Positions 1,533 to 26,664 of a stretch of DNA of 32,000 bases are shown one piece after another. The DNA is from Candidatus Scalindua sp. (GTDB taxonomy: Bacteria > Planctomycetota > Brocadiia > Brocadiales > Scalinduaceae), in the NCBI GenBank assembly GCA_031316235.1, contig JALDRA010000001.1, forward strand, positions 2,610,001 to 2,642,000, written 5' to 3'. The notes beneath the pieces were generated by a model, which did not search any database, had not been told where the DNA came from, and saw nothing but the letters and a program-made list of their open reading frames with translations. The number at the start of each line of letters is the position of its first letter. Position 1 is the stretch's first letter. The position numbers were made by a program, and so were the translations under genes.

Positions 1533-2105
1533 ATGGCTGGAAAACTGGATGTCGATACCGTTAAAGCTGAAATCCGTAGTATGAATGAGGCTAACTTGAG
1601 ATCAATCATGGACATTTTGGCATTGGAGATATCGAAGAGTTCCCATGATAGTGGTCCGGAAAGTAACATTCTGATCTCAGAAAACACATTAGCGGAATAC
1701 ATTTCTGAAAAGTTCAGCAGTATGGATGAATTTCATGAGAGGGTATTGCAAAATGACAAAGGGATCAGAGGGATTCAGGCTTTTGCGGAAGCTGTTTATC
1801 AATACTTTAATCAGAAAGATCACTTAAGTTTTCACCTGGTAAAAGAGAGTATAAGCAGTAAAAAAGATATTATATTGAAAACAATAACTGACTTGGTAGC
1901 ATATAAAATTTCTCAGAGCTCAAATGACAAAGGTCCTGAGATGAATTTTATCACAGCAGAAACGTTCGTTGCTGAATACATATCGAAGTTTTTCAAAAGC
2001 AGGCGAGAGCTTGAAAACAGGATTTCAAAATTGGGCAATGATATGAAAGGATTAGGAATTTTTTCTGATACCGTATATAGCTTTTTCGTTGATGGTGAAG
2101 AATGA
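1533..2105 (+). CDS. Hypothetical protein made of two tandem ~75-aa repeats
   Basis: ATG start. Internal duplication is visible: DILALEISKSSHDSGPESNILISENTLAEYISEKF...GIRGIQAFAEAVYQYF versus DLVAYKISQSSNDKGPEMNFITAETFVAEYISKFF...GLGIFSDTVYSFF. The stop overlaps the next start (ATGA at 2102-2105). Confidence 0.7.
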   Translation: MAGKLDVDTVKAEIRSMNEANLRSIMDILALEISKSSHDSGPESNILISENTLAEYISEKFSSMDEFHERVLQNDKGIRGIQAFAEAVYQYFNQKDHLSFHLVKESISSKKDIILKTITDLVAYKISQSSNDKGPEMNFITAETFVAEYISKFFKSRRELENRISKLGNDMKGLGIFSDTVYSFFVDGEE

Positions 2106-3454
2106 AGGCAATATTTGTTTATCTGTCCGGAAGTAAGAGAGGTAAAACAGAGTTTTTTACTGATAAGCAGATCAGCATCGGTACAGATCCTTCCTGCAAT
2201 GCACGATTTGAACCGTCTCTTGATAGAAATACCTCACCTCTCCATGCGGAAATACACTTTGAAAAATGTACTTATATACTTAAGGATTTGGATAGTACAG
2301 AGGGTACATTTGTTAACAACAGGCTGATCAAAGAAGTAGTTCTGCAGGATAGTGATCTCATTGAATTTGGTGACAATGGGCCAAGAGTACGTTTCAGGAT
2401 TAAGGCTGAAGAGGGTGACGTGTGTAAACCCTTCAGGGAGATGTTAGCAGACTCTATGGATCTTGCAAGGGAAACTCACAAGGGCAGGAGACTGACGACA
2501 GCGACACTCTTTTTTAAAACATTATTGTATGAAGCTTACACCCAATCCTCTTTACAGTTTAAGGTATTGAGTTTCATAATTTTTGTCATCATTTTCGGAG
2601 GTGTTGTTGCTCTCTCTCATACTATATATACGACGCTGGCCGAGACAACGAAAAGGATTGAGGTTTTAGAGTTAAAAAGTACTGTTGCCGAAAAAATCAT
2701 TAGAAACTTTAGTGGTGGTGTATGTCTCATTCAATGTTCCTTTTCGTTGATTGATGAATTAACGGGAGAACCATTAAAATCCTGGAGCGATGGAAGTTTG
2801 CTGACAAACGATTATACGGGAACAGGGTTTTTGGTCAGCAAAGACGGTATGGTATTAACGAATCATCATATTGCAGAGCCGTGGTGGGGGAAAAGTGCTC
2901 AATTTGTCTCAATACGAAAAGGCTTTAAGCCCAGATTTGAGGTGTTCAGGGCGTTTTTTCCAAATGTAAAGGAACCATTTCCTCTTAAAATTGAGAGAGT
3001 ATCTGAAGAAGCTGATGTTGCGCTGCTGAGTTTTGATCCAAGGGGTATTGCTATTCCGGTACTTGAATTAGACGCTGGACAAATAGAGGCTATAGAGGGA
3101 GAGCCAGTTGTGTTAATAGGCTATCCCGCAGGATTGAGTGCACTTTTTGCAAAAACGGATCCGGACCTTGCACGGGAGATTTCTCAATTACCTTTTATTC
3201 AAGCGGCACAGGAACTGTCAGACAGGGCTTTGATAAGGCCAATAACTACTCAAGGTCATATCAGTGATGTTTTAAAGGAGAGGATTATTTATGATGCGCA
3301 GACAACTGTCGGTGGTAGCGGTGGCCCTCTCTTCAACAATAAAGGCAGGGTTGTTGCGGTCAATTACGGTATATTTCGTGGTTTTGGTGGGGCAAACTTC
3401 GGGGTTCCGATAAAACATGCCCTGGTGCTGATCGAAGAGGGAAGGCGTGAATAG
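2102..3454 (+). CDS. FHA domain - transmembrane helix - trypsin-like serine protease fusion
   Basis: N-terminal FHA pattern (ISIGTDPSC...SPLHAEI...YILKDLDSTEGTFVNN...LQDSDLIEFG). TM segment LSFIIFVIIFGGVVALSHTIY. Protease triad contexts are GTGFLVSKDGMVLTNHHIAEP (His), EADVALLSF (Asp) and TTVGGSGGPLFN (Ser). No PDZ domain. Confidence 0.85.
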   Translation: MKAIFVYLSGSKRGKTEFFTDKQISIGTDPSCNARFEPSLDRNTSPLHAEIHFEKCTYILKDLDSTEGTFVNNRLIKEVVLQDSDLIEFGDNGPRVRFRIKAEEGDVCKPFREMLADSMDLARETHKGRRLTTATLFFKTLLYEAYTQSSLQFKVLSFIIFVIIFGGVVALSHTIYTTLAETTKRIEVLELKSTVAEKIIRNFSGGVCLIQCSFSLIDELTGEPLKSWSDGSLLTNDYTGTGFLVSKDGMVLTNHHIAEPWWGKSAQFVSIRKGFKPRFEVFRAFFPNVKEPFPLKIERVSEEADVALLSFDPRGIAIPVLELDAGQIEAIEGEPVVLIGYPAGLSALFAKTDPDLAREISQLPFIQAAQELSDRALIRPITTQGHISDVLKERIIYDAQTTVGGSGGPLFNNKGRVVAVNYGIFRGFGGANFGVPIKHALVLIEEGRRE

Positions 3455-8143: not shown

Positions 8144-9610
8144 TTAACTTACCGAAACTTCTTTTTCTGAGGGCACAGTTACTGCACTGCTCTTATACCA
8201 ATCCTGGTAATAATCTCCTGAATCATAAAGCTTATGGAGATTATCTAAAACCTGCTCAAATACCTGCTGCCAATCAGACCCTACTCGAAAGCCAAACATG
8301 GCATTTCGTTTCCCGTGCATTGTGCTGCCAATGGTTTTTGCGGATTTCCTAAAACGGTGCCTCAGATTATCACCGGCATAAAGATTATCGTACATGTACT
8401 GCATGCCATCAATAAAGTCTTCCAGCGTCATATCAACGAATCTGTGTACAACATGTGCAGTGTCATAATATTTCCAGTCTTCAGGATAATTTTTGCGGAA
8501 AATCCTTTTTTCCGCGTCGAGTCTATGATAAAGGGCGGTTTGCGGGAATGGACAATTAATACCAAAAGTAAGGACATCAATATTGTTTTCGAGGACAAAT
8601 TCTGTCATCGTTTTGAATGAATCTTTATTGTCTCCATCTGCTCCCAAGACGATAGAGCCCCAGACTATGAGACCGTGATCATGAACCTTTTGAATGCAAT
8701 CGTAATAACTGTCAGTTCCCAGTCTGAGATTGACCTTTTTATTCATCTTCTCAAGAACTGCCTCGTTCGTCGATTCTATTCCGCAGAGAAATCCAAAATT
8801 ACCGCTCTTGGCCATTAGATCCAGAGCCTCTGCGTCCTGTGAAATATTAAGAGCGGTAAACCCAAGCCAATCCTTTTTTATGCCCCTGTCAATCATACCA
8901 CGCCAGAGGGCCTTTGCCCTGTTTGCGGAGTTCTTACTGTGGCCATAAAAATTGTCCTCGGCAAACATCAATCCCTTGTAATCAGTGGCTTCCATCTCAT
9001 CTAAGACATCTTCATATGGTCTTTCACGGTATTTTTTCCCCTGGAAGGTGGGTACGCTGCAAAAATCACAGTAATTCGGACATCCCTTGGTTGTCACAAT
9101 AGAAGAAAACTTATAATCATATTTTTTCTTCAAAAATTCCCTGTCGGGGAATACGTGTTTCATTTCTGATAAGGCCGGCAGCCCTCCATTGTAGATTTTT
9201 TTGAGTTCACCGTTTTCAAAATCTTTAATTACCTGCGGCCAGAGAGCTTCAGCCTCACCGGTAAATATGGCATCAACATATTGAGCCGATTCATTTGGCA
9301 TAACGGATACATGAATTCCTCCCATGATTACGGTCATACCTCGGTTTCTACAGGCTTCCGCAATTTTGTATGCCCTTGCCACCTGGTAGGTGACAGAGGT
9401 GATACATACCAGATCAACGGGCTCAAACGTTATTTTTCCGTTTTCATCGATTGCCAGCTCCATATTTTCATCGATTAAGTCAAATTCCCAATCTCCGGGA
9501 GTCAAAGCTGCGATATAAGCAAGGTTTAAAGGCATTTGTACGATAACAGAGATACTTTCTTCACCATGTCTTCCTGGTGGGTGTGGATTGATGAGCATCA
9601 TTTTTCTCAT
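8144..9610 (-). CDS. B12-binding-domain radical SAM enzyme (class B type)
   Basis: CX3CX2C motif in TTKGCPNYCDFCSVP. N-terminal Rossmann-like B12-binding region (MMLINPHPP...DLVCITSVTYQVARAYKIAEA...TVIMGGIHVS). AGGAGG lies 7 nt upstream of the ATG. Confidence 0.85.
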   Translation of the reverse strand: MRKMMLINPHPPGRHGEESISVIVQMPLNLAYIAALTPGDWEFDLIDENMELAIDENGKITFEPVDLVCITSVTYQVARAYKIAEACRNRGMTVIMGGIHVSVMPNESAQYVDAIFTGEAEALWPQVIKDFENGELKKIYNGGLPALSEMKHVFPDREFLKKKYDYKFSSIVTTKGCPNYCDFCSVPTFQGKKYRERPYEDVLDEMEATDYKGLMFAEDNFYGHSKNSANRAKALWRGMIDRGIKKDWLGFTALNISQDAEALDLMAKSGNFGFLCGIESTNEAVLEKMNKKVNLRLGTDSYYDCIQKVHDHGLIVWGSIVLGADGDNKDSFKTMTEFVLENNIDVLTFGINCPFPQTALYHRLDAEKRIFRKNYPEDWKYYDTAHVVHRFVDMTLEDFIDGMQYMYDNLYAGDNLRHRFRKSAKTIGSTMHGKRNAMFGFRVGSDWQQVFEQVLDNLHKLYDSGDYYQDWYKSSAVTVPSEKEVSVS

Positions 9611-9622
9611 TTTCTTGTCCTC

Positions 9623-11035
9623 CTAATTATTTAAAATCATATTAGCCACCCCCCAGCCTGAGGAGACAACGGCACAGATCCCTGGACCAGGATTTGTCCA
9701 GTGCCCTGCTAGAAAAAGATTCTTGAAAGGTGTAGTGTGCGGAAGCCTGTTCGACCAGGTTTGGTCAACGGTGACTGCCCAACCATATGCCGCACCCTTT
9801 GAATTAAGGGTGTAGCGTTTTAAAGTCCTGGGTGTACCGGTCTCAATTACATCAACGTGGTTCCGGATATCTGGAACAAGAGTTTCAAGAAAATTCATCG
9901 TGTGTTTTGTCATCTTTTCCTTAAAAGCATCAAAATTTCCTATTTCATCAAAATGCTCACTTAGGGACACCACAACGGTAATTATCTGCTTGCCGTCAGG
10001 TGCAAGGTTTGCATCCACTTTGGTTGGTACAGATATATAGAACCACTCACTCTCAGAACAACTCGTGCCTCCCGATGTATGATAGAAGCCTCTCTTTAAA
10101 TCTTTTAAATCAATTTTATTGCCAAGGCCCAGATATAACAGAAAGAACGATGTGCTTTCCTTCATGGTTCTTATTTTTTGAAGGTACGCCGCGTCAATCT
10201 CTTGATTATCGAGTAATGTAAAAAAAGTCTGTCCAGGATCTATATTTGAAACGAACTGATCAGCGTGGTATTTTTCCCCTCTGTCCGTTATAACTCCTTT
10301 TACAAGCATATCTTTCGTCAAGATCTTCTCGACCTTAGAAGATAACATAATACGGCCACCATAGTCAATAAATTTTTGAGTAATTGCGTCCGCAAAATTC
10401 TGGGTGCTCCCCAGTGGATAAAAAGCACCATCTTTGAGATAATTAACCAACATCTGGCACATACCAATAGCAGAAGCTTCATGAGGTGGAGAACCGATAT
10501 AACCCCATTGAGCGGACAGCACCATTTTAAGACGTTCATCAGTAAAAAAAATATCCAGCATTTCCTTATAAGTCAGGTCTTTGTACTTTGCCAATATTTG
10601 GCTCTCCTTTGTGCGAACCGTTGACCGGTATAATCCTACAAATTCCTTGAAGAACGCTGAAATATTGTTGCTTTCAGAGACAAAATTATTTTGGAGTACT
10701 TTTACGTAATCATCAAGATCCGCTGGTACATCTACCGAAAAGGTCGGGAAGTTTAAACTATCCATCGGATCCAGCTGTACAAACCTGATGTCTATTCCAA
10801 GTTCCTTGAGACATCTGCCAACGATGCTCCATGTTCCGCATCCGCCAATGTGGTGAACTGCGGCATCAAAAGTAAAACCTTTTCTTTTAAAAGAGGTGCA
10901 ATAGCCCCCCGGCAGGTAATGTTGTTCAATTAACAGTGTTTTTTTTCCGTTTTTTGCCAGGAATGCCCCGCAGATTAAACCTCCAATTCCTGCTCCGAGA
11001 ATGATTACATCGTATTTTGGCTCTTTCAGATTCAT
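9623..11035 (-). CDS. FAD-dependent phytoene-desaturase-family (CrtI/CrtN-like) oxidoreductase
   Basis: Dinucleotide fold YDVIILGAGIGGLICGAFLAKNGKKTLLIEQHYLPGG. C-terminal family motif NLFLAGHWTNPGPGICAVVSSG. The ATG at 11035 is preferred over the GTG at 11080 that opens the track ORF. Confidence 0.85.
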   Translation of the reverse strand: MNLKEPKYDVIILGAGIGGLICGAFLAKNGKKTLLIEQHYLPGGYCTSFKRKGFTFDAAVHHIGGCGTWSIVGRCLKELGIDIRFVQLDPMDSLNFPTFSVDVPADLDDYVKVLQNNFVSESNNISAFFKEFVGLYRSTVRTKESQILAKYKDLTYKEMLDIFFTDERLKMVLSAQWGYIGSPPHEASAIGMCQMLVNYLKDGAFYPLGSTQNFADAITQKFIDYGGRIMLSSKVEKILTKDMLVKGVITDRGEKYHADQFVSNIDPGQTFFTLLDNQEIDAAYLQKIRTMKESTSFFLLYLGLGNKIDLKDLKRGFYHTSGGTSCSESEWFYISVPTKVDANLAPDGKQIITVVVSLSEHFDEIGNFDAFKEKMTKHTMNFLETLVPDIRNHVDVIETGTPRTLKRYTLNSKGAAYGWAVTVDQTWSNRLPHTTPFKNLFLAGHWTNPGPGICAVVSSGWGVANMILNN

Positions 11036-11145
11036 GGGAATTGTACCAGTTGTGATTTTACTTATCGAACGAAATAACACTTATGAACTGCTGACAGATG
11101 AAACTCTAATAGCAGAGAGTGTATCTTAAATGGTGATTTTACTGA

Positions 11146-12384
11146 CTAATTTGAATATTTTGAGATGATGATAGATGAAATGTTGCCGGTATCAGAAAAA
11201 GCGTTGATAAGAACATTGTTTACCTCCGATGCTCTCTTTTTGTTCGGGACATAATCCAGGTCGCACGTGTCATCTTTTTCCTGATAATTTATCGTGGGCG
11301 GGATAACGCTAGTGTTGATTGCCATGATAGCTGCAACACACTGCATAGCGCCAGATGCATCGAGGCATTCACCAGTCATAGATTTTATGGCACTTATTGG
11401 AACTTTTGCTGCGATATTTCCAAAGTAATCCTTAATAACCCTGGTTTCCATCATGTCTCCGGTTTTACTTGAGTTTGCACATGCAGAAATATAGGAAATA
11501 TCGTCAATATTGAGCTCTGCTTCTCTCATTGCCAAAGAAATACACCTTACGCCTTCCTCGGTATTAAGTACTTCATGGTCTATTTTCTTCGGATTAAAGG
11601 TGTTTCCGTACCCCTTTATTTCAGCGTAAATTTTTGCATCTCTTTGTTGTGCGTCTTCCAGCCTTTCAATAACAAGCAGTGCTGCAGATTCCCCTATGAT
11701 AAATCCGTTCCTCCTCTTATCGAATGGTGCAGAGATTTCCACGGATTCTCCCCTGCTGCCAGAGAGTATGCCTGATCTGTACGCACCCCAGAAAATGTCC
11801 GGGGCTAACCCGTATACGCCGCCGGCTAATACTGCTTTTACTCGATTCAGCCGCAGGAAATCTGAAGCGTAAATTATTGCGTCCAGTCCGCTTGTGACGC
11901 CAGTTGATATTGTGGAGTTAAGACCTGTTGCCTTACAAAATATTGAAGCCCGGCTTGCAGGGGCATTTAATACAGTATTGGGGAATTCCATGGGATTTAC
12001 AAAACTCGGCCCCTCTTTGAGTGCTTCCAGATCAAATGAACTGATACTATCGATGCTGCCGTACGTTGAACCTATTACTATCCCTAAATCTTCTTCTCGA
12101 TAGATTTCATGGGTGATCTCGGCATCGTCCATGACCAATTTTGCAGCGGAAGAGGCCAGAAGAGAAGTTCTGTCAATATGCCTGATTCCTTTTTTGCCGA
12201 GAAATTCCCTTGCGTCAAATTCTGATATCTCACCTGCCTTTTTGCTTTTATACCGGGAAACATCAAAGAGGGTGATATCCTTTATACCGGAAACGCCGTT
12301 TGTTAAATTATTCCAGAAATCGTCTTTGTTCAGTCCCAGCGGAGATAAAATGCTGATTCCTGTTATTACCAAGCGTGTACTCAT
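11146..12384 (-). CDS. Ketosynthase-like protein lacking the catalytic triad (KS-beta / CLF-like partner)
   Basis: Full-length FabF/KAS II fold (VITGISILSPLG..., PPTINY...CDLDYVPN). Aligned against FabF motifs: TACxSG is TGVTSG (Cys to Val), AHGTST is ACANSS (His to Cys), KSMTGH is KSMTGE (His to Glu). Confidence 0.85.
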   Translation of the reverse strand: MSTRLVITGISILSPLGLNKDDFWNNLTNGVSGIKDITLFDVSRYKSKKAGEISEFDAREFLGKKGIRHIDRTSLLASSAAKLVMDDAEITHEIYREEDLGIVIGSTYGSIDSISSFDLEALKEGPSFVNPMEFPNTVLNAPASRASIFCKATGLNSTISTGVTSGLDAIIYASDFLRLNRVKAVLAGGVYGLAPDIFWGAYRSGILSGSRGESVEISAPFDKRRNGFIIGESAALLVIERLEDAQQRDAKIYAEIKGYGNTFNPKKIDHEVLNTEEGVRCISLAMREAELNIDDISYISACANSSKTGDMMETRVIKDYFGNIAAKVPISAIKSMTGECLDASGAMQCVAAIMAINTSVIPPTINYQEKDDTCDLDYVPNKKRASEVNNVLINAFSDTGNISSIIISKYSN

Positions 12385-12437
12385 AGTTATCGTTAATCCA
12401 TCAGAAAAATAATTTCTCTAAAACAAAAAAAATAGCT

Positions 12438-13658
12438 TTACCCTGAATACTTTTTTAACACGAGGCAACTATTGTTACCACCAAAGGCATATGCGTTATT
12501 TAACGCTATGGTAATTTCCATTTCGCGTTTAACATTTGGAACGAAATCCAGATCACATTCAGGGTCCATGGTTTCATAGTTTATCGTAGGCGGAACCACA
12601 TCTCCTTTGATAGCCAGGGCACATGCAATGGCCTCTATAGCACTTGCCGCTCCCATAGTATGACCTAACATCGATTTAATAGAACTTATCGCCAGCCGCT
12701 TTGCATGTTCTCCAAAAACCTTTTTAATCGATATTGTTTCAGCTTTGTCATTTGCCAAAGTTCCCGTTCCATGCGCACTTATGTATTGAACATCTTCAGG
12801 TTTTATATTTGCATCTTTTAATGCTTTTTCCATCGCTGAGACAACACCGTTCCCATCCGGGTGGGGGATGGTGATGTGATAACTGTCACAACTTAAACCG
12901 TAACCTAGAATTTCTGCGTAGATATTTGCGTTTCTGGCCAGTGCATCTTCCAGGGACTCCAGCACAAGCATTCCAGCACCTTCGCCAATCAGCATACCCT
13001 TCCTGTTTTTATCAAAAGGCTGGCAGATTTTCGGTGCAATAGCATTAAGCCTGCCAAATCCAACATACGCGACTTTTGAAAAAGGGTCAGAACCACCGGC
13101 TAACATTATGTCTGCTCTGCCTAATCTTATTAAGTCACAGGCATAACCTATAGCATAATTCCCTGCCGCACAGGCTGTCGGAATAATAGTAGTTGGCCCC
13201 TTGAAACCAAATTCGATAGATACGTTAGAAGGTATATTGATGCAGGGGTGGCTCAAGAAAAGATATGGATCTACGCTATCATCTCCGTTTTCATGCCGTA
13301 AAAGATTTACCCTTTCAAGGATCTGGATTTCCCCTGCGGTTGTGCCGATAGAGACACCTATGTTTTCAGGTGCAATGTCCTTTATCTGTAACCTGGAGTC
13401 ATCTAAAGCAAGCTTGGTAGCAGCGATCGCGAATTGTGACCCTTTGCCAATTTTGCGGTTTGAACCATTGCTAACATAATCTTCATACGTGAAGTCTTTG
13501 ACTTCACAGCCTCTGTGAACCTTGAAAAGGGAGGTATCGAAGGACTTCACTTCAGACACTCCGGATTTCCCAGCAATTAAAGCATTCCAAAATACGTCTT
13601 TGCCACATCCTATAGGGGAAATTGCTCCCACACCAGTTATTACAATTCTTTTGTTCAT
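12438..13658 (-). CDS. 3-oxoacyl-ACP synthase II-type ketosynthase (catalytically intact)
   Basis: FabF-like throughout. Active-site Cys in [13 protein letters not shown], His in YISAHGTGT, Lys/His in [16 protein letters not shown], then PPTINYE...CDLDFVPN. Confidence 0.9.
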
Positions 13659-13784
13659 AGAACTTCTAGCTCTTCTTTTACAATCTCACCTTATTTTAGA
13701 GGTACAAAAAAGCAACCCTTTGAATAAATTTTCCAGGAAATGCTTATTCTTTAAAGGACTTCCGGCTGTGAATAAACCGGAATT

Positions 13785-14234
13785 TTAAAGCAGTATAGTA
13801 TTTTTATCTGCGACTCCAAAACTCAATGTTGCTTTTGTAACTATCTTTTCTCCCACTTTAGCTACACCCTTAACTATTGCAGCGCTGGAAACAATTTTTT
13901 CGCTGTTTATTTCTAATATCAGCTGATCTCCAGGGAATACAGGTTTTGAAAAACGAACATTGGCTGAAGCCAAAAGAAACACCTTGTCTTTCACTGTATC
14001 CGTATTAAAGCTCTTCTGGAAGAGAATTATTGATGCTTGTGCCAGGGCCTCTATGATCAAAACTCCCGGCATGATGGCAAAATCAGGAAAGTGTCCGGCA
14101 AAAAACGCTTCATTGCCCGTAACGTTTTTCAAACAGACAATTCTGCTCTCTTTTTGGAATTCAATAACCCTATCGATAAACAGGAACGGAAATTTTTGAG
14201 GAACTAACTCCCTCACTTCCTCAAAGCTCAACAT
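13785..14234 (-). CDS. fabZ: 3-hydroxyacyl-ACP dehydratase FabZ-like
   Basis: VPQKFPFLFIDRV, GHFPDFAIMPGVLIIEALAQ (catalytic His and Glu contexts), PVFPGDQL. The ATG at 14234 (150 aa, AAAGG upstream) is preferred. An alternative ATG lies at 14303. Confidence 0.85.
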   Translation of the reverse strand: MLSFEEVRELVPQKFPFLFIDRVIEFQKESRIVCLKNVTGNEAFFAGHFPDFAIMPGVLIIEALAQASIILFQKSFNTDTVKDKVFLLASANVRFSKPVFPGDQLILEINSEKIVSSAAIVKGVAKVGEKIVTKATLSFGVADKNTILL

Positions 14235-14416
14235 TGTCAGGCGCCTTTCAGCTTTAAAAATACCCTCCACACGAATCACTGTTTTCAGGGTGCAGACAGG
14301 CATCCTGAAAAAGGTATCGCATGTATTCTTGCATGATTGGTACCGTAAAACCCGTCACCGTCTGAAGTTTTACACCCAAACTTGGAGAGTTGACTGTGTC
14401 AGTTAAAACTTAGCTA

Positions 14417-19127: not shown

Positions 19128-20639
19128 CTATTTGCTTTTTACAATCACAAATTGCGTCAGCATACCTCTTTGTACGAGAAACAATATATCATTATTTTTG
19201 TCTGTTTTCTGTAAGGCTTTATTGAACTCTTCCACAGTACTAATTTTTTTCCTGTTCACCTCTATAATCAAGTCTCCTTCTTTTATGTCAGCCTGATCTG
19301 CCGGGCTCTCAGGCTCAATCGACGAAACGATAACGCCATTTTCATCCTCATACCCTAAACTATCCGCAAGCTCTTTTGTTAACTCCTGAACTGCCAGCCC
19401 CAGAGCATTGCCTTTTGACGAAGGCTGGCCTCCGGCAAACAGATCTGCAGGTTGCTCATCGATCGTGACGGTTAACGCTTTTTCTTTGCCTCCTCTCAAG
19501 ACTCTGACTTCGACCTTTTTATCAACCTCTGTCTGGGCTACAACATTTCGTAATTGATTGAGATCTTTTATTTCTCTGTTGTCATACCATATTATGATAT
19601 CACCGCTTTCTATGCCGGCCTCTTCTGCAGGCGAGTCTTTCTGTACGTCACTGACCAGCACGCCTTCTGTTACGTCTACATTAAATTGTTTTGCAAGTGC
19701 AGGATCAAGATCCTGAATAACAACTCCCAGCCAGCCACGGGTGACTTTCCCCTTATCTATCAAATCTCTCAGTACGCTTTTTGCCATGTTTATGGGTATC
19801 GCGAATCCAATACCCTGATACCCTCCGGAGCGTGTAGCGATTACGGTATTTATGCCAATGACCTCACCTTTTATGTTAACCAGAGGTCCTCCGCTGTTAC
19901 CAGGGTTAATGGCAGCGTCAGTCTGAAGAAAATCCTCATATTGTGCAATACCAACTCCAGACCTCTTCGTTGCGCTTATAACACCCAATGAAACGGTCTG
20001 GTTAAATCCAAACGGGTTCCCTACTGCTATTGCCCACTGGCCAGGTCTCATTTCATCGGAATTGCCCATTTTGGCAGGAATCAAATTTTCTCCTTCAATT
20101 TTCACTACCGCCAGATCTGTTTGCGGGTCGGTTCCGATAATTACGGCATCAAACTCTCTTTTATCACCAAGCGTCACCTTTAATTCATCGGTATCCTCAA
20201 CAACATGGTTATTGGTTAATATATATCCCCTTTTATCAACAATTACCCCGGACCCAAGGCTTTGTGACTTGTATTCCCCTTCGGGTTTCCGGGGGGAAAA
20301 TTTTTCGAAAAAATCATCTCCAAAGAAATCACGGAATGGGTCTCTGCCTCTTTCTTGTCTGTCGCCGTGGTAATTACCTGTCGGATGCTTGAAGACTTTT
20401 ACTGTCGTGACGGAGACAACTGAGGGTTTTACAAATTCAGCCACAAGCTCTAATGATTTTTCCAGGGTATTTGCTACACTATGCAGTTTTTCAATCTTTT
20501 TTGACAGGTTTTCGTTTTCCTCTCTGGCCGATGCATGAACCGTGTTTGATGAAGAGGTGCATTCGCCTAGCAACGCCAAGATTAAGACTAGTAATAGGAT
20601 AAAAGAGTATTTTTTTATGCTCCAGTTTTTCATATACAA
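19128..20639 (-). CDS. htrA: Periplasmic serine endoprotease HtrA/DegP with two PDZ domains
   Basis: Signal peptide. Triad contexts LTNNHVV, TDLAVVKI, GNSGGPLVN. Two PDZ-like regions. The track ORF opens at a TTG at 20639 (AGGAGG 5 nt upstream). The first ATG is at 20633. Confidence 0.9.
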   Translation of the reverse strand: MYMKNWSIKKYSFILLLVLILALLGECTSSSNTVHASAREENENLSKKIEKLHSVANTLEKSLELVAEFVKPSVVSVTTVKVFKHPTGNYHGDRQERGRDPFRDFFGDDFFEKFSPRKPEGEYKSQSLGSGVIVDKRGYILTNNHVVEDTDELKVTLGDKREFDAVIIGTDPQTDLAVVKIEGENLIPAKMGNSDEMRPGQWAIAVGNPFGFNQTVSLGVISATKRSGVGIAQYEDFLQTDAAINPGNSGGPLVNIKGEVIGINTVIATRSGGYQGIGFAIPINMAKSVLRDLIDKGKVTRGWLGVVIQDLDPALAKQFNVDVTEGVLVSDVQKDSPAEEAGIESGDIIIWYDNREIKDLNQLRNVVAQTEVDKKVEVRVLRGGKEKALTVTIDEQPADLFAGGQPSSKGNALGLAVQELTKELADSLGYEDENGVIVSSIEPESPADQADIKEGDLIIEVNRKKISTVEEFNKALQKTDKNNDILFLVQRGMLTQFVIVKSK

Positions 20640-20860
20640 AGCTGCCTCCTTACTGATTTTTAGAAATTGTTTAAAAACTTTCTCAACTGCAATAAATGAT
20701 ATCCGCCCTATTAATCAAACGCTCCATATAGAAAAGGTCATGCGGGCAGCATGGAGTGGACGCCTTTCTACCCACACCATCAGCCAGAATATACGTCTGG
20801 CCGGAACGAAACGTGATCGGAAATGCGTGACCGACTGGTGAGTCAGCAGCAGCCAATCAT

Positions 20861-23482
20861 TCACAATTCTTTCTCAATGCTTTTTACTCGATCTTTCGCC
20901 TGTTCGGTTCGTATATAAGTGAGATCACGTATGGAACCAAACAATTCGATTGACTTCTTTTCGTCTATAATGCACCAATACGCCTCTTTTGCCCTGTCAT
21001 AATAGATCTTTTGTTCCTCCTCAAACAACAAGGCCAGCTCTTCATAGAGATTGCCGATCCGATACTGTGCATTTACGGGTGTGATTCCCTTAAATTTTTC
21101 TATTATCTCCTGAAACCTATTGATTGCCCGATTATAATAAATCTTTGAACCGTCCCCGTCTCCCACATCATAAAGTGCCAGGCCAACATAATGGTAGGCT
21201 TCTGCTACCGCATAAGAATGCTCTTGAGCCTCATCTTTGTATCCCTCTCTGAGCTCTTCCAATATATTTTTATACCTCTGTTCCATCGCTTCCACAAGAC
21301 TTATGCTCAGGGGGATCTCGGAATCGTCTATTTCATTACGGCTCGCCACTTTTACCCGGGGGAAGAGAAGTTTGGTCAGGCAATTGCAATTCAGCCCCTT
21401 TACAAAATAGAGTTCTTCCAGAGAACCGAATTTTGCATTGTTTTTTCTATACTGTAAAATAATCTCTGTTTCTTCTTTATCTATTCGAAATCCATTATTG
21501 AGTAAAGTTGAGAGATCGTTATCATTTGCCCTGCAGAGTGCCTTGTATAATCTGAGGAGGGTAATCAGGATTGCCAGTTTCTGAGAAGGTGTTTCTCCAT
21601 GCAATACCGTTCTCCTGAAAAATATCAGCCAGGGATTTTTACAGGAAAATCTTACAGATTCCGGTCTGGTGTAAAAAACTTCAAGGGCGGTAGTAAGTTT
21701 GCGGCAATTCCAATCTTTAGACTCTTCATAGCCTGAATCCTGATATATTCTGTCAATTCGATGAAAGTATTCTGCTATTATGTGTCTCATCTCTATAGCG
21801 TTAACCTTTCGGTGCAGTTTCAATTCATGGGGCCTGTATTTTAAGGCCTCTCTGTAACAACAGAGCGCATCATTAAATTTTTTTGCATGACTGTTTTTGT
21901 CTCCCATGAATTCATAAAACCTTTTAAACATTTTCTTGTCTCTCAAGGCTTCCTTCTCCTCTTTATCCAGGCATTCCGACTTTGCAAAGTGCTCTATGAT
22001 TTCTCTTGGGGTCTGCAGTGATGCTTTTGTAAGGAACTCAAGTCCGGAAATATATTCGTAAACGGAATGACATTTTAAAGTTAAGTCGTTATCTGGCGGG
22101 AACTGTTTTCTTGCTTTTTGCACACAGCCCCGCGCCTCTTCAAACAGACCGAACTCAGCATATGCCTTTCCTAATTGGAGCAGTAAGCCTGCACCTGTTT
22201 TCTCGTTTGTCTGCTGCGCACGTTCATATTCGTTCCTATATTTACCAATCGTTGTCTTGTAGATAATGGGAATAATTTCAATAGTATTGCAGGCAATACG
22301 AATTACCTGTACTTTGACATCACCCGTTTCTGAATCAATCATAACCCCTGGGACTTCGCTCCCATCAGGGAATTGTATCCGGGGATTCTTTTTTATCACG
22401 CCGGCAGTAAAAACAGAGCTCTTTCCTTTTACCAGGTCTTTTGAGGTCAGGATCCTGTTCCAGGGCATTTCCTCCCTTTTTTCTGTGCAGGGCCGCACAA
22501 TTTTGAAATTTCTCAGGGTGTCTATTTCATTTTTTCTAAAAAGTTCCCAATTCTCTTGTTTTCTCAGCAACTCCTCATCCAGAGCAACTTCTGAGGGTAA
22601 TATCCTCAATGTTATTTCGCCTCCTAAATGTGCAACTATTATTCCACTCAACACAGCTTCAGGAACGCCTCCTACTCCCAGAATAAGGTCTATTTCGTTT
22701 CTCACTGCAGCGAAAGTCGGAGTGAGGTCATCGTCTTTAACAAGAATTGCAGTGGCACCCATGTTTGATATGGTTTCTGCAAGTTTTTTATGCCTCGATC
22801 TCTCCAGAGTCAGAATCCTCATCTTTTTGATTTCTGCCCGGATATTATCCGGGCTTTGTTCTTCGTTCCTGTTTTTCAGTGTATGCTGGGCCATTAATGT
22901 CAGATTCTGCGTAACAGGCAGGTCTGCACGTACACCTGCTCCCTTATATTTGTTTCCGACAATAGTCTTCATTCCGTACATATCTGGTGAATTGAACAAT
23001 CCGCCCCTGTTACTATATCCAACGGCAAAAATTGAACCTCCTTCAGAATCCGGATCAACGATGCACCGATCGTTCTCAAAGGCGCTGAGCGCAATATCAG
23101 CCTCCTCTCTCTTGTATCCTGTTGCAGAGCCGAATCTCTCTCCTATGTACAACATGGGCATATCCTTGCGTTCTCCCTCGGCATTTACCACATAAGCCTG
23201 CCACCAGTTAAAACTATTGTATATGTGTCTCAGCCACCAGACTGCCATACCCCGTGTACGAAATATGTTGAAATCTTCCCCATTGGTGCTGAAATATTTC
23301 AAGGAGCGAGCGGCAACAACCCCTACAGCATGTAGTAATTCATTTCTGTTTTCCAGTTGAAGAGTAGTGCCGGAAGTCTTCAGGTCATATTCTTTGGGAA
23401 TATACGCTTCTGTTATGTGGGGTTCGTACAGCATCTTGGGTTCAAACTTTTCGTCCTTTATAAATGAGAAATTGTTTTCCAT
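20861..23482 (-). CDS. Fusion protein: class II fructose-1,6-bisphosphatase (GlpX)-like domain + TPR-like helical repeats with embedded ComEA-like HhH module
   Basis: GlpX signatures from memory: AEGERKDMPMLYIGE, VDPDSEGG, SPDMYGMK, VKDDDL, GVGGVPEAV (aa ~45-410). TPR-like pairs include LGKAYAEFGLFEEARGCVQKA, FNDALCCYREALKYRP, AEAYHYVGLALYD...YYNRAINRFQ and YRIGNLYEE. HhH-like segment at aa ~652-708. Confidence 0.8.
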   Translation of the reverse strand: MENNFSFIKDEKFEPKMLYEPHITEAYIPKEYDLKTSGTTLQLENRNELLHAVGVVAARSLKYFSTNGEDFNIFRTRGMAVWWLRHIYNSFNWWQAYVVNAEGERKDMPMLYIGERFGSATGYKREEADIALSAFENDRCIVDPDSEGGSIFAVGYSNRGGLFNSPDMYGMKTIVGNKYKGAGVRADLPVTQNLTLMAQHTLKNRNEEQSPDNIRAEIKKMRILTLERSRHKKLAETISNMGATAILVKDDDLTPTFAAVRNEIDLILGVGGVPEAVLSGIIVAHLGGEITLRILPSEVALDEELLRKQENWELFRKNEIDTLRNFKIVRPCTEKREEMPWNRILTSKDLVKGKSSVFTAGVIKKNPRIQFPDGSEVPGVMIDSETGDVKVQVIRIACNTIEIIPIIYKTTIGKYRNEYERAQQTNEKTGAGLLLQLGKAYAEFGLFEEARGCVQKARKQFPPDNDLTLKCHSVYEYISGLEFLTKASLQTPREIIEHFAKSECLDKEEKEALRDKKMFKRFYEFMGDKNSHAKKFNDALCCYREALKYRPHELKLHRKVNAIEMRHIIAEYFHRIDRIYQDSGYEESKDWNCRKLTTALEVFYTRPESVRFSCKNPWLIFFRRTVLHGETPSQKLAILITLLRLYKALCRANDNDLSTLLNNGFRIDKEETEIILQYRKNNAKFGSLEELYFVKGLNCNCLTKLLFPRVKVASRNEIDDSEIPLSISLVEAMEQRYKNILEELREGYKDEAQEHSYAVAEAYHYVGLALYDVGDGDGSKIYYNRAINRFQEIIEKFKGITPVNAQYRIGNLYEELALLFEEEQKIYYDRAKEAYWCIIDEKKSIELFGSIRDLTYIRTEQAKDRVKSIEKEL

Positions 23483-23490
23483 TTTCTGTT

Positions 23491-24255
23491 TTAACGGATA
23501 CCGTTATGTCCCGATTGGGTGATAGCATCGTCTGCGGTTACCAGATACTTTAAACCCGGCTTTTTTCCATCGGAGATCTCTTTCCTCAGCCATTCGATCG
23601 CATAGACCCTGAATTTTCTTCCGTACTTATGAGTCATACTCCAAAAACTGCATGGTATCGTGCAGCCACGAGGGGTCTCAACGATATCAAGTAGTTTAAC
23701 TCCAGACGCATACCCTTGCCGGATTTGGTTTTTCCTTTCCGGCAAGGCTGCTTTTGTAAGATCTTCAAGGGATCCCGGTTGGTTATGGACGAAAACGCCG
23801 TCTTGACTGAATGATAATCCCATCACATCTCTGTATGCGGTTTTATTTTCAAGAGCATTGACGGGCTCCCCGAAGCTGAGGCCGTTATCACCCCGAAGAA
23901 TAAAATCGAATGGGCCGGGCACCTCATCTTCTTCAATCTCTTTATGCATGAGTTCCCCATGGCAACTACCTGTCACAAATTTGATAGTGCTATCAAGGTT
24001 TTTGATGAAGGAGACAATACGTCTGGCAGTGCGCAACAGAAAGCTCATTGCACTGATACCGATAAGTTCAGGTATGACTGCAGGGAGGGTGTTTTTAATA
24101 ACCGGGGTGAGTTTTTGTAGAACGGGGAGCTGCTCTGCCAGGTAGATGCCACACCCCATGAGATTTCCGGTAAGGGAAGATATGGCCGGATTGGGAAGTC
24201 TCCGCCCCTTTAATGGCGGCACCGTATCCGGCATGGGAAAAAGTGCAATCCTCAT
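23491..24255 (-). CDS. Truncated B12-binding/radical-SAM-like protein with degenerate cluster motif (possible pseudogene)
   Basis: The N-terminal two-thirds resembles the B12-binding domain of class B rSAM enzymes (ELIGISAMSF...IKFVTGSCHG...DFILRGDNG...GLSF..DG). The rSAM core begins ETPRGCTIPCSFWS, so CX3CX2C has become CX3CX2W. The ORF stops about 45 aa later (254 aa versus about 450-500 expected). The stop is 8 nt from the next ATG. Confidence 0.6.
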   Translation of the reverse strand: MRIALFPMPDTVPPLKGRRLPNPAISSLTGNLMGCGIYLAEQLPVLQKLTPVIKNTLPAVIPELIGISAMSFLLRTARRIVSFIKNLDSTIKFVTGSCHGELMHKEIEEDEVPGPFDFILRGDNGLSFGEPVNALENKTAYRDVMGLSFSQDGVFVHNQPGSLEDLTKAALPERKNQIRQGYASGVKLLDIVETPRGCTIPCSFWSMTHKYGRKFRVYAIEWLRKEISDGKKPGLKYLVTADDAITQSGHNGIR

Positions 24256-24450
24256 AGCTTATTCTTTATACCTTTTAAGAGGATGATGTATGGGTAATTC
24301 AATCAATAGTGCAAAAATTCTGATGAGTACCGATCATAGTATTTTATCACTTTCAAACTGAAAAAAGTGTATCTGTTACTTATACCAAACATTATGTATG
24401 TTGTAAAATAAATTTACATTTTAAGGATACGGGATCTGGATGGTCACAAT

Positions 24451-24479
24451 TTGACATTTAAAACCTGCTTTGATACTAT
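24451..24479 (+). promoter_or_regulatory. Extended -10 sigma70-like promoter candidate for cooS
   Basis: TTGACA (24451-24456), 17-nt spacer whose last 3 nt are TGa (24471-24473), TACTAT (24474-24479). It lies about 210 nt upstream of the GTG start, in a 430-nt AT-rich divergent intergenic region. Confidence 0.4.
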
Positions 24480-24687
24480 TTATAATTAAAATTTGTGGGA
24501 AGCTGCTTTTGCCGTATCAGGGCAATGACTGCCTCAGGAAACATCATAACAATTTCACGATAAAGCGAATCCATTCTTAAAAGGGGGATCGTTTTCTTAT
24601 AAAATTTTTTAAGCAATCTGATATCTCTTCTGCAGGTACTGTTGAATTATCAATTGGGACAACAGAGAGTGAGAAAAGGAGTGGACT

Positions 24688-26664
24688 GTGCGGAAATGGC
24701 TGGAAAAGGAAAAAGAGTTACGTAAAAAGGGATTTGCTGATAAGCAAATTGAAGAAACCGTTGCTTTTTTGCGGAAAAAAGGTGTTCAAACCGTTTGGGA
24801 TGTGCAGGATGCTTATGATTCGACTCTTTTTGGTTTGGGAGATAGATGTTCATTTGGAAGCCATGGTCTCTGTTGCCGGAACTGCAATCTCGGGCCATGC
24901 AGGCTCGGAAGTGAAGAGTTGCCCCTGCACCTGAAGTTTTCCGTACCAGGGGTGAATCGGAGCTCTTGTGGCAAGACAGCGGATAGCATGGTTGCCGGTA
25001 TGTTCCTCCAGACGGTATTGCGGGGGACAAGTTCACACATTGGCCATGCACTGCATGTAGCACGGGCATTCGTGAAGGCGGCGGAAGGTTCTGACCATTT
25101 TCCCATCAAGGATGCTCAAAAACTGCTGGCTGTTGCAAAAAGCCTGGGTATTAATACTGATCAAAAACAGGACCTTGCAATTGCAAAAGAGATAGGGCAG
25201 AAGGCAATGGAAGATCTTGCTGGACCGGGTGAAGGTCCAATGAGTTTCGCACTCGCCCTTGCACCGAAAAAAATAGAGAATCTTCTCGAAGCTGGACTGA
25301 TACCTCAGAAGGGAGCTGCGGAGGCAATCGTCCAGGGCGTGCATAGCACCGCACAGGGGATGATGAGCAGCGCCAAGCATCTGCTCCTCTCCTGTTTGAG
25401 GTTCGGTGTGATTGATATGATGGCCCTCTACATTTCCACACAACTGCAGGATATCCTGCTCGGAGTTCCAACTCCGAAACCGGGTAAAATCGGAATAGAT
25501 GTTTTAGAAAAAGACAAAGTGAATATCCTTGTTCATGGCCATGTGCCGGTACTATCAGAGATGGTGATTGCACAGGCAGACAAATTGACGGGAAAGGCAA
25601 TGGGAGCGGGTGCTAAAGGCATCAATGTGGTAGGCACCTGTTGTACGGGTACCGAGGTCTTAGTCAGGCTCGGGATCCCGATGGCCGGCAGCACGATCAT
25701 GCAGGAACTTATTGTCGGTACGGGTCTGGTTGATGCCGTGTGTGTAGATGTTCAGTGTGTCTATCCGTCACTCTCAACTATTACACAAGGGCTCCATACC
25801 CGTTTAATTACGACCATGCCGGAACTCAGAATGGACAACGATATCTATATAGAATTCACGCCGGACAATGCTCACGAGGCTGCAGGCCGAATCGTTGAAG
25901 AAGCAATTGCTGCATATAAAGAGCGTTCACCGGAGCGGACATTTTTGCCGAAGGCAAAAGGTCATGACCTGATGGGAGGATTTTCTGTAGAAGCTCTCAT
26001 GGGTGTGCTTGAAACCTTAAACCCGGAAAAACCACTCAAACCGCTGGTAGATTTAATTATTGATGGATCTATCCAGGGGGTAGCGGTTCTTGCCGGCTGC
26101 CTCTCTTCAAAGATTCAGACCGACATGAGTTTTGTTACCATAGCAAAGGAACTTCTCAGGAACAATATTCTGGTCCTTGCCACAGGGTGCGCAGCTACCG
26201 CATGTGCAAGGCACGGGCTGCTGATGGGTGAGGCAAAGAGTATCGTTGGTGAATCATTACGTGGTGTTCTGGATACGATCGGCAAGGCAGCAGGCCTGAA
26301 TGGTTCAATGCCGCCTATCCTCCATTTTGGTTCATGCGTTGACAACTCACGGTGTGCGGTACTGGCCTCCTCAATTGCAGATTATCTGGATACCTCCATA
26401 GATAAACTTCCGCTCATTGCAAGTGCTGCCGAACACGTTGTGGAAAAAGCGGCTGCCATTTACATGGGAGTGATCGCCCTCGGTATTACAACTCACATAG
26501 GGGTGACACCAAAACTGAGCGGATCACCGTACGTAATTAATATGCTTACCCGGGAGCTGGAGCATATTACCGGGAGTACTCTCCTCATCGAGATTGACCC
26601 AAACGATTCAGCAAAGGCGATGATCGAACATATTCGGAAAAAGAGAGCAGGGCTGGGTATTTAA
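24688..26664 (+). CDS. cooS: Anaerobic Ni-Fe carbon monoxide dehydrogenase catalytic subunit
   Basis: N-terminal Cys pattern CSFGSHGLCCRNCNLGPCRLG. Cluster-ligand contexts VHGHVP, VVGTCCTG, VDVQCVYP, LATGCAA, HFGSCVDNSR. 658 aa. GTG start with AAGGAG 6 nt upstream. Confidence 0.85.
   Translation: MRKWLEKEKELRKKGFADKQIEETVAFLRKKGVQTVWDVQDAYDSTLFGLGDRCSFGSHGLCCRNCNLGPCRLGSEELPLHLKFSVPGVNRSSCGKTADSMVAGMFLQTVLRGTSSHIGHALHVARAFVKAAEGSDHFPIKDAQKLLAVAKSLGINTDQKQDLAIAKEIGQKAMEDLAGPGEGPMSFALALAPKKIENLLEAGLIPQKGAAEAIVQGVHSTAQGMMSSAKHLLLSCLRFGVIDMMALYISTQLQDILLGVPTPKPGKIGIDVLEKDKVNILVHGHVPVLSEMVIAQADKLTGKAMGAGAKGINVVGTCCTGTEVLVRLGIPMAGSTIMQELIVGTGLVDAVCVDVQCVYPSLSTITQGLHTRLITTMPELRMDNDIYIEFTPDNAHEAAGRIVEEAIAAYKERSPERTFLPKAKGHDLMGGFSVEALMGVLETLNPEKPLKPLVDLIIDGSIQGVAVLAGCLSSKIQTDMSFVTIAKELLRNNILVLATGCAATACARHGLLMGEAKSIVGESLRGVLDTIGKAAGLNGSMPPILHFGSCVDNSRCAVLASSIADYLDTSIDKLPLIASAAEHVVEKAAAIYMGVIALGITTHIGVTPKLSGSPYVINMLTRELEHITGSTLLIEIDPNDSAKAMIEHIRKKRAGLGI

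Follow-up and report, generated by a model that had tools for sequence, protein, structure and literature searches.

We analyzed a gene of Candidatus Scalindua sp. that lies on the reverse strand of a 32,000-nucleotide stretch of contig JALDRA010000001.1 (positions 2,610,001 to 2,642,000; this whole stretch is referred to as the window) and encodes a protein with an N-terminal domain of the GlpX fold, i.e., that of class II fructose-1,6-bisphosphatase (FBPase), a C-terminal tail of tetratricopeptide repeat (TPR)-like helices, and a helix-hairpin-helix (HhH) module embedded in this tail. The results showed that this GlpX-TPR protein is real and is conserved across the anammox order Brocadiales, with the architecture that a preliminary description of the window had proposed. 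In this family, the Thr nucleophile of class II FBPases has given way to Asp, Ala or Asn, the Asp that activates it to Arg, and the Asp that binds the metal at the scissile phosphate to Ser. We therefore favor, with moderate confidence, the interpretation that the protein is a metabolite-sensing regulatory or scaffold pseudo-phosphatase and not a gluconeogenic FBPase. The name 'fructose-bisphosphatase class II', which is given to the family in databases (PGAP, IMG), is probably a mis-annotation.

Family conservation and domain architecture

The open reading frame (ORF) of 873 amino acids (aa) plus stop that had been described was found, uninterrupted, in the ORF list of the window (Table 1). 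A search of 5.8 billion proteins recovered >120 full-length homologs of about 870-930 aa, which are 52-89% identical to the window protein and come from Candidatus Scalindua, Brocadia, Loosdrechtia, Brocadiaceae and Brocadiales, several of them from contigs of 2-5 Mb. When one genome per GTDB species was scanned, 70 loci were found, nearly all of them in Brocadiales and distributed over the genera Scalindua, Brocadia, Jettenia, Loosdrechtia, Anammoxibacter, Wunengus and Subterrananammoxibius, with two or three copies of the gene in some genomes. The few remaining loci are on short contigs of metagenome-assembled genomes that are labelled otherwise, and because their identities are typical of Scalindua, they were probably mis-binned. 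The residue counts (x/48), conservation values and AlphaFold2 model reported here are based on a 48-sequence alignment of the family, in which the mean column identity is 64% and 123 columns, spread over all modules, are invariant. We found no description of this family, or of any non-catalytic GlpX, in the literature searched. A neighbor-joining tree of GlpX domains placed the anammox family in one clade with a long stem; this tree was set aside, as its deep branching is untrustworthy.

Profile searches supported, at the domain level, the earlier assignment of the N-terminal ~410 aa to GlpX. The Pfam family FBPase_glpX (PF03320) matched aa 79-364 of the window protein with E=8.6e-37 and 127.1 bits against a gathering cutoff of 27, and it matched 48/48 family members. 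The stricter NCBIfam equivalog model for GlpX (TIGR00330), however, gave 112.8 bits, which is below half of its cutoff of 259.3. In a sequence search of the PDB, the only significant matches were class II FBPases (7JS3, 3D1R, 3ROJ and 6AYY; E=3e-20 to 2e-14). The AlphaFold2 model of the full chain has a mean predicted local distance difference test score (pLDDT) of 81 and a predicted template-modeling score (pTM) of 0.80, and a Foldseek comparison of the model with the PDB returned GlpX or fructose/sedoheptulose bisphosphatase (F/SBPase) structures for all of the top 24 chains (E=3.5e-16 to 7e-12, target TM 0.70-0.81). The pTM of the full chain suggests that the GlpX domain and the TPR tail are held in a fixed arrangement in the model. 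The 45-residue extension in front of the GlpX domain is moderately conserved (mean top-residue frequency 0.68).

Replaced and retained residues of the active site

The catalytic site of E. coli GlpX comprises ten residues: D33, E57, D85, E88, T90, Y119, K164, R166, D188 and E213 (PMC5892879). In that enzyme, the metal at the scissile phosphate is held by D85 and E213 and the second metal by D33 and E57, and the D33-T90 interaction is 'required for catalysis'; Asp33 is both a ligand of metal 2 and the activator of Thr90 (PMC5892879). The high-affinity metal site is a contiguous DPLEGTT motif, and mutants in which the nucleophile is changed from T to A are fully inactive in F. tularensis and M. 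tuberculosis (PMC10289334).

Our results showed that three of these ten residues are replaced throughout the anammox family. The Asp33 position, which is Asp in E. coli and in all canonical and Omnitrophota sequences, is Arg77 in all 48 members. The segment equivalent to DPxEGT is SAFEND, in which S, A, F, E and N are each found in 48/48 members, so that the metal ligand D85 has become S133 and only the Glu (E88) of the motif is kept. The last position of this segment, that of the nucleophile T90, is D in 45 members, A in two and N in one, and one of the members with Ala is the closest ortholog (P0003), which is 85% identical to the window protein. The other seven residues (E57, E88, Y119, K/R164, R166, D188 and E213) are kept; among them, the Tyr and the two basic residues are those that hold the phosphates of the substrate. 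E57 is E102 (48/48), Y119 is Y169 in the segment SPDMYGMK (48/48), D188 is D252 (48/48), E213 is E275 in the segment GVGGVPEAV (47/48), and the change from K164 to R228 is the one seen in M. tuberculosis. In addition, the invariant D251 at the Gly187 position adds an acidic residue to the pocket. This G187-to-D change is present in all of the remodeled proteins that we tabulated (the window-type family, P0142, P0130, P0145/P0273, P0146 and P0192) and absent from all of the canonical and Omnitrophota sequences tabulated.

The preliminary description had recognized EGE..PMLYIGE, SPDMYGMK, DDD in place of DGD, and GVGGVPEAV as GlpX signatures, and all of these were confirmed at homologous positions. 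It had also listed VDPD.EGG among them. We considered VDPDSEGG (aa 142-149) as the homolog of VDPxEGT and rejected it, as the HMMER and MAFFT alignments both place that motif at SAFEND and the residues in question are D in 12/48, P in 17/48 and E in 11/48 members; the resemblance is a species-specific match in a loop that is variable in the family. Since the motif aligns to SAFEND and not to VDPD.EGG, the further statement that the acidic metal ligands are retained holds for E57, E88, D188 and E213 but is wrong for D33 and D85, which are replaced in 48/48 members.

No other part of the protein is as strongly conserved as the remodeled pocket: 24% of the columns in aa 46-300 are invariant, and of the ten best-conserved 15-mers, six flank the pocket. 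For this reason the pocket is, to judge from the alignment, a constrained functional site and not a decaying one. We propose that the protein is cytoplasmic and would have lost the canonical class II FBPase machinery while keeping a constrained sugar-phosphate pocket. In this pocket, Arg77 and Ser133 would take over from the metal ions and touch the 1-phosphate themselves, and the domain would bind a sugar (bis)phosphate, e.g., fructose 1,6-bisphosphate (FBP) or sedoheptulose 1,7-bisphosphate (SBP), without hydrolyzing it or, at most, with a re-tooled, non-canonical chemistry. Occupancy by the ligand might then be relayed to the rigidly attached TPR solenoid, so that partner proteins are recruited or released.

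The most serious alternative is that the protein is still an active phosphatase, with FBP, SBP or some other phosphorylated sugar as its substrate and a rebuilt site in which D138, D251 and Ser133 take the place of the lost Asp and Thr residues; the TPR tail would then serve only for localization or oligomerization. We regard this as possible but rather unlikely. It would agree with the retention of four carboxylates and all phosphate-binding residues among the seven kept, with the acids added to the pocket (G187-to-D in all members, T90-to-D in 45/48), with the pocket being the best-conserved region, with a Pfam GlpX score far above the cutoff, and with the apparently intact catalytic residues of Omnitrophota relatives that have the same GlpX+TPR junction. 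However, the nucleophile position is not fixed, as it is Ala or Asn in three members including the 85% identical ortholog, and a T-to-A change kills the characterized enzymes; the activator of Thr90 is replaced by a cationic Arg in every member; and the equivalog score is under half of its cutoff. Furthermore, Kuenenia possesses and expresses a canonical class I FBPase: the gluconeogenic step of K. stuttgartiensis is assigned to the class I fbp gene KSMBR1_1273 (Q1PYS0, 37 kDa), which adjoins fba and the product of which was detected in the K. stuttgartiensis proteome (PMC8027424). In the available part of the published Kuenenia proteome supplements, an ortholog of the GlpX-TPR protein was not found by name. 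The family-wide replacement of D33, D85 and T90, the TIGR00330 score and the separate, expressed class I enzyme of Kuenenia thus speak against the suggestion, made in the preliminary description, that a working gluconeogenic or Calvin-type phosphatase had been recruited into this architecture.

Several observations also weigh against a sensor or scaffold without FBPase activity. The confidence of the AlphaFold2 model is low at the active-site loops (aa 64-82, 103-109 and 119-124). D138, present in most members, and the invariant D251 are two new acidic residues that could rebuild a metal site, and with seven of the ten residues kept, the protein may retain some phosphatase or other activity. 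The strong conservation of the pocket would suit a re-tooled enzyme equally well as a sensor. The evidence for a separate FBPase comes from Kuenenia only and not from the Scalindua genome of the window. Finally, even the most widespread neighboring gene recurs in only 14 of 68 loci, which leaves the role as scaffold or regulator to inference.

A role as sensor of sugar bisphosphates or as scaffold would make the protein the first GlpX-fold member without catalytic activity. It would also make it a candidate regulator of carbon flux in anammox bacteria, which are important to the global nitrogen cycle and to wastewater treatment. Metabolic reconstructions of these bacteria may, following the name that the family carries in databases, count it as a gluconeogenic enzyme, which, to judge from its residues, it probably is not.

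The TPR tail and the embedded HhH module

The C-terminal ~460 aa had been described as TPR-like, and both family profiles and Foldseek agreed with this, resolving a solenoid in two blocks. In the window protein itself, TPR_2 scored 26.8 bits, just below its cutoff of 27, with TPR_2 and TPR_14 located at aa 433-467 and TPR_1 at aa 533-552 of the first block; across the family, TPR_2 matched 46/48 members (best 3.1e-11), TPR_1 41/48 and TPR_12 39/48. The tail is all-helical in the model, with about 20 helices of TPR length arranged as a helix-pair solenoid, and its Foldseek matches, after those to GlpX, were consensus TPR, OGT, SPY (SPINDLY), LGN and BBSome structures (E=1e-4 to 2e-3, probability about 1.0). 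The second block contains a conserved YAVAEAYHYVG segment and 16% invariant columns, and its pLDDT is 82-95 over most of its length and lower in the first ~30 residues. Between the HhH module and this block is a linker with pLDDT <50 at aa 715-729, a conservation of 0.80-0.86 and three invariant residues (P724, S726 and I727). This linker, which is predicted to be disordered but is among the best-conserved stretches of the protein, may be a linear docking motif.

The module at aa ~652-708 had been described as of the ComEA/HhH_3 type. This was borne out for the fold, which is of the HHH_3-type (HhH)2 kind according to four independent tests, but not for a canonical form of the module, which is degenerate. 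PF12836 (HHH_3) matched aa 675-704 of the window protein with E=0.034 and 14.7 bits, short of the cutoff of 27, and matched 19/48 members at E<=0.1 (best 1.4e-4). An hhalign comparison of the family profile of aa 645-712 with the bona fide HHH_3 domain encoded by a neighboring ORF gave a probability of 88% and E=2.8e-6. In a PDB-wide profile search with the module, only EEPD1 (1.3e-3) and ComEA (3.8e-3) scored below 0.01. As for structure, the full-chain model has four short helices at aa 654-706, and a model of aa 640-715 in isolation (pLDDT 87) has helices at 15-25, 30-43, 49-54 and 60-67 and, as its top two Foldseek matches, the HhH domains of KIF22 and TEFM, both with weak E values (0.16 and 1.8). 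The loop between the HhH motifs (at aa 688/689 of the window protein) is extended by insertions of about 10-58 aa in some Brocadia-type orthologs; Scalindua-type orthologs carry none.

This fold allows a second alternative, in which the protein is a metabolite-responsive, DNA-binding regulator, with the HhH module binding DNA, the GlpX-like domain sensing FBP, and genes of carbon metabolism as the targets. ComEA-type HhH domains bind DNA without sequence specificity, which, along with the four tests of the fold, would be in line with such a role. Nevertheless, we consider it very improbable. Binding to the DNA backbone would be expected to involve G-h-G hairpins and a basic surface, and neither was found: the net charge of the module has a median of -1 and a range of -7 to +3 among the 48 members, the Gly of the second hairpin (G696) is kept in 36/48 members, with Glu or Asp in the other 12, and the first hairpin reads F-[G/R/K]-[M/I]-S, without the GhG signature. 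With 4% invariant columns, the HhH also ranks last in conservation among the modules, its central loop is where some members have the insertions that reach about 58 aa, and Pfam shows no sequence-specific DNA-binding domain in the protein. Because the module is poorly conserved and neutral to acidic and has degenerate hairpins, canonical binding to the DNA backbone, and with it the DNA-binding context that the preliminary description had thought possible, appears doubtful. We suggest, rather, that contacts with proteins would be the more likely role of the (HhH)2 module and of the disordered but conserved linker. The last alternative, an assembly chimera, a mis-called fusion or a decaying, functionless pseudogene, which might be suspected from an architecture unusual for GlpX and from TPR and HhH Pfam scores below the cutoffs in the window sequence, has a negligible probability and was rejected because full-length orthologs of the same length recur across Brocadiales in independent assemblies, some on contigs of several Mb, and the frame is uninterrupted and its conservation extends over all modules.

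Genomic neighborhood and other genes of the window

The neighborhood was compared by tblastn of the window proteins against the 70 loci and by de novo clustering of flanking ORFs. As no neighbor was kept in more than the 14 loci mentioned above, no operon partner can be inferred. The best-conserved neighbor is the divergent CooS gene, which is present in 14 loci of the Scalindua clade only and not in other anammox genera. The 254-aa ORF directly upstream has no Pfam match, and its conservation is limited to six close, Scalindua-type loci; the region around ..ETPRGCTIPCSFWS.. in it resembles the cluster motif of radical S-adenosylmethionine (SAM) enzymes without the third Cys. A scan of positions 20400-24800 for promoters and terminators gave nothing usable: 17 promoter-like sites were found versus 9.2 ± 3.6 in shuffled sequences (about 2 standard deviations above), and terminators were at chance (4 versus 3.8 in shuffles).

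Table 1. Features of the GlpX-TPR gene and of selected neighboring genes in the window.
Feature	Residues (aa)	Position	Strand	Evidence or remark
GlpX-TPR gene, complete ORF: GlpX-like domain, TPR block, HhH module, linker, TPR block	1-873	20861..23482	-	>120 homologs; 70 loci
N-terminal extension	1-45	23348..23482	-	two short strands in model; without counterpart in canonical GlpX
GlpX-fold (class II FBPase-like) domain	46-410	22253..23347	-	Pfam PF03320, PDB sequence matches, Foldseek
R77 at catalytic Asp33 position	77	23252..23254	-	Arg 48/48; ungapped alignment to Asp-bearing sequences
E102-GERKDMPMLYIGE115, Glu57/Glu59-equivalent	102-115	23138..23179	-	top-conserved 15-mer, mean conservation 0.95
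S133-A-F-E-N-D138, DPxEGT equivalent	133-138	23069..23086	-	HMMER and MAFFT alignments
V142-DPDSEGG149, variable loop, not a catalytic motif	142-149	23036..23059	-	only GG conserved
R228-S-R230, kept phosphate-binding pair (E. coli K164, R166)	228-230	22793..22801	-	R228 48/48; R230 47/48
D250-D-D252, equivalent to D186-G-D188	250-252	22727..22735	-	D251, D252 48/48; D250 D35/E11/N2
First TPR-like helical block	411-651	21530..22252	-	about 13 helices; DSSP of model; Pfam
HHH_3-like (HhH)2 module	652-708	21359..21529	-	degenerate hairpins (NGF.., VKGLN); profile and fold tests
Linker	709-728	21299..21358	-	predicted disordered yet highly conserved (IPLSIS)
Second TPR-like block	729-873	20864..21298	-	7 helices; Pfam TPR_12, TPR_10 at aa 759-795
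Uncharacterized 254-aa ORF		23491-24255	-	stop 8 nt upstream of GlpX-TPR start codon
CooS/prismane-family CO dehydrogenase-like gene		24688-26664	+	divergent from GlpX-TPR operon
PGK-HHH_3-GDH fusion, 1115 aa		28432-31779	-	phosphoglycerate kinase aa 49-464, HHH_3 489-547, dehydrogenase 596-1006

The bona fide HHH_3 domain used above belongs to a fusion of phosphoglycerate kinase (PGK) and a dehydrogenase of the Glu/Leu/Phe/Val type (GDH), in which HHH_3 was matched by Pfam above its cutoff (E=1.3e-9). About 40 clusters of homologs of this fusion were found, and all of the named ones are from Scalindua, Brocadiia/Brocadiales or unclassified Planctomycetes, where their annotation reads just 'phosphoglycerate kinase' or 'glutamate dehydrogenase'. 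In its most far-reaching form, the sensor hypothesis would make the GlpX-TPR protein an anammox-wide flux sensor, in which the dead FBPase pocket reads FBP or SBP and the TPR repeats, linker and HhH module assemble or regulate a complex of central-carbon enzymes. In Scalindua this might include HhH-HhH pairing with the PGK-HHH_3-GDH protein, encoded 5 kb away, which could be likened to the (HhH)2 heterodimer of ERCC1-XPF, and both proteins would be remnants of an Omnitrophota-like fusion lineage. We regard this extended proposal as a long shot.

Two further regions were noted. At 8144-14303 on the reverse strand are genes for a B12-binding radical SAM enzyme, an amine-oxidase/desaturase-like flavoprotein, two FabF-type ketoacyl synthases and a FabA-like dehydratase, a composition that presumably matches the proposed cluster for anammox ladderane-lipid biosynthesis. 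A 450-aa ORF at 2102-3454 on the forward strand encodes an N-terminal forkhead-associated (FHA) domain and a trypsin-like serine protease domain.

Relatives and comparison with known systems

A phmmer search of 1.84 billion representative sequences gave 688 matches, in which long proteins of 550-4950 aa (E=1e-59 to 1e-20) lie between the anammox family and the ~320-aa GlpX proteins (about 1e-19). These long relatives join GlpX and TPRs with PGK, class II aldolase, triosephosphate isomerase (TIM), PEP-utilising/pyruvate phosphate dikinase (PPDK), GDH, glucosamine-6-P isomerase-like and starch-synthase domains. Of the ten for which a taxon was looked up, two bear a taxon name, and both are Candidatus Omnitrophota. 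The earlier statement that GlpX is normally a single-domain protein is thus correct in general but does not extend to the long, multi-domain forms in Omnitrophota. 'Archaeovorin' giant proteins that carry TIM, FBPase, aldolase and PPDK domains have been described (bioRxiv 10.1101/2023.11.21.568195), and the domain content of the long relatives appears to fit this description. In P0133 and P0156, which have the Omnitrophota-type architecture, we observed many short G-A-R-[LMI]-A motifs between the enzyme-like domains. These could be linkers or processing sites; post-translational cleavage has been proposed for such giant proteins (bioRxiv 10.1101/2023.11.21.568195).

The Omnitrophota GlpX+TPR modules are the closest relatives outside the family (phmmer E=1e-59 to 1e-33), with similarity that runs through the C-terminal subdomain of GlpX into the first TPRs and reaches about aa 552-567 of the window protein. 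The Omnitrophota giants also resemble the PGK-HHH_3-GDH ORF of the window in combining glycolysis-type domains in one chain. Unlike the anammox protein, the modules in Omnitrophota have the complete set of ten catalytic residues, with the motif D[VT]xE[LQ]T, and lack a recognizable HhH after the GlpX domain; their N-termini resemble signal peptides, whereas the window protein has no hydrophobic N-terminus. With 873 aa and a single enzyme-like domain, the window protein is not itself a giant of the 'Archaeovorin' type, and only the GlpX+TPR module is homologous.

A second paralog family with the order GlpX-like/TPR/HhH-like/TPR was found in Scalindua (P0145/P0273, Scalindua brodae/rubra), and P0146 and P0192 also fall in this more degenerate group with the same architecture. 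Its member KHE91016.1 from S. brodae ('putative fructose 1,6-bisphosphatase', 986 aa) is about 27% identical to the window protein. The paralogs share with the window family the D33-to-R change, the loss of D85 and T90, and the G187-to-D change, and have further losses (E213 to G, D186 to Y, and the motif NILESE), so that, from their residues, they would be even less likely to be catalytic. Because this second group shares these replacements and the long relatives are intact, the catalytic loss defines one clade, and the GlpX+TPR junction is, on this comparison of sequences, older than the loss. The anammox protein would then have originated from a 'long' GlpX+TPR lineage, the catalytically intact members of which are found inside the multi-enzyme giants of Omnitrophota. 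This link gives the architecture an evolutionary origin and offers an intact/remodeled pair for structure-function work.

Class II FBPases (EC 3.1.3.11) hydrolyze FBP to fructose 6-phosphate in dependence on Mn2+ or Mg2+ and form 222 homotetramers. With characterized examples (3D1R of E. coli, 7JS3 of F. tularensis, 6AYY of M. tuberculosis and 3ROJ, the Synechocystis F/SBPase), the anammox domain shares the fold, at about 20-24% identity (Foldseek), the GGxPE and PMLYIGE segments and the seven catalytic residues. It differs from them in the SAFEND segment, the D33R, D85S, T90D/A/N and G187D replacements, the 45-aa N-terminal extension and the 460-aa TPR/HhH tail. FBPase catalysis by this domain is unlikely. 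Similarly, the embedded module has the helix pattern of ComEA-type HHH_3 domains (PF12836; ComEA 8DSS, EEPD1 9YI2), i.e., ..LN.A....L..[hairpin]....II.YR....F.S..EL..V.G[hairpin]...L.KL, and departs from them in its degenerate GhG hairpins, its lack of basic character and its insertion between two TPR blocks.

Finally, the glucokinase regulatory protein (GKRP) has a sugar-isomerase fold and binds fructose 6-phosphate (F6P) or fructose 1-phosphate (F1P) without catalysis. Although it differs from the anammox protein in fold and lineage, to which it is unrelated, the logic may be a shared one, with substrate-binding residues kept, catalytic residues lost, and the resulting domain coupled to protein-protein interaction.

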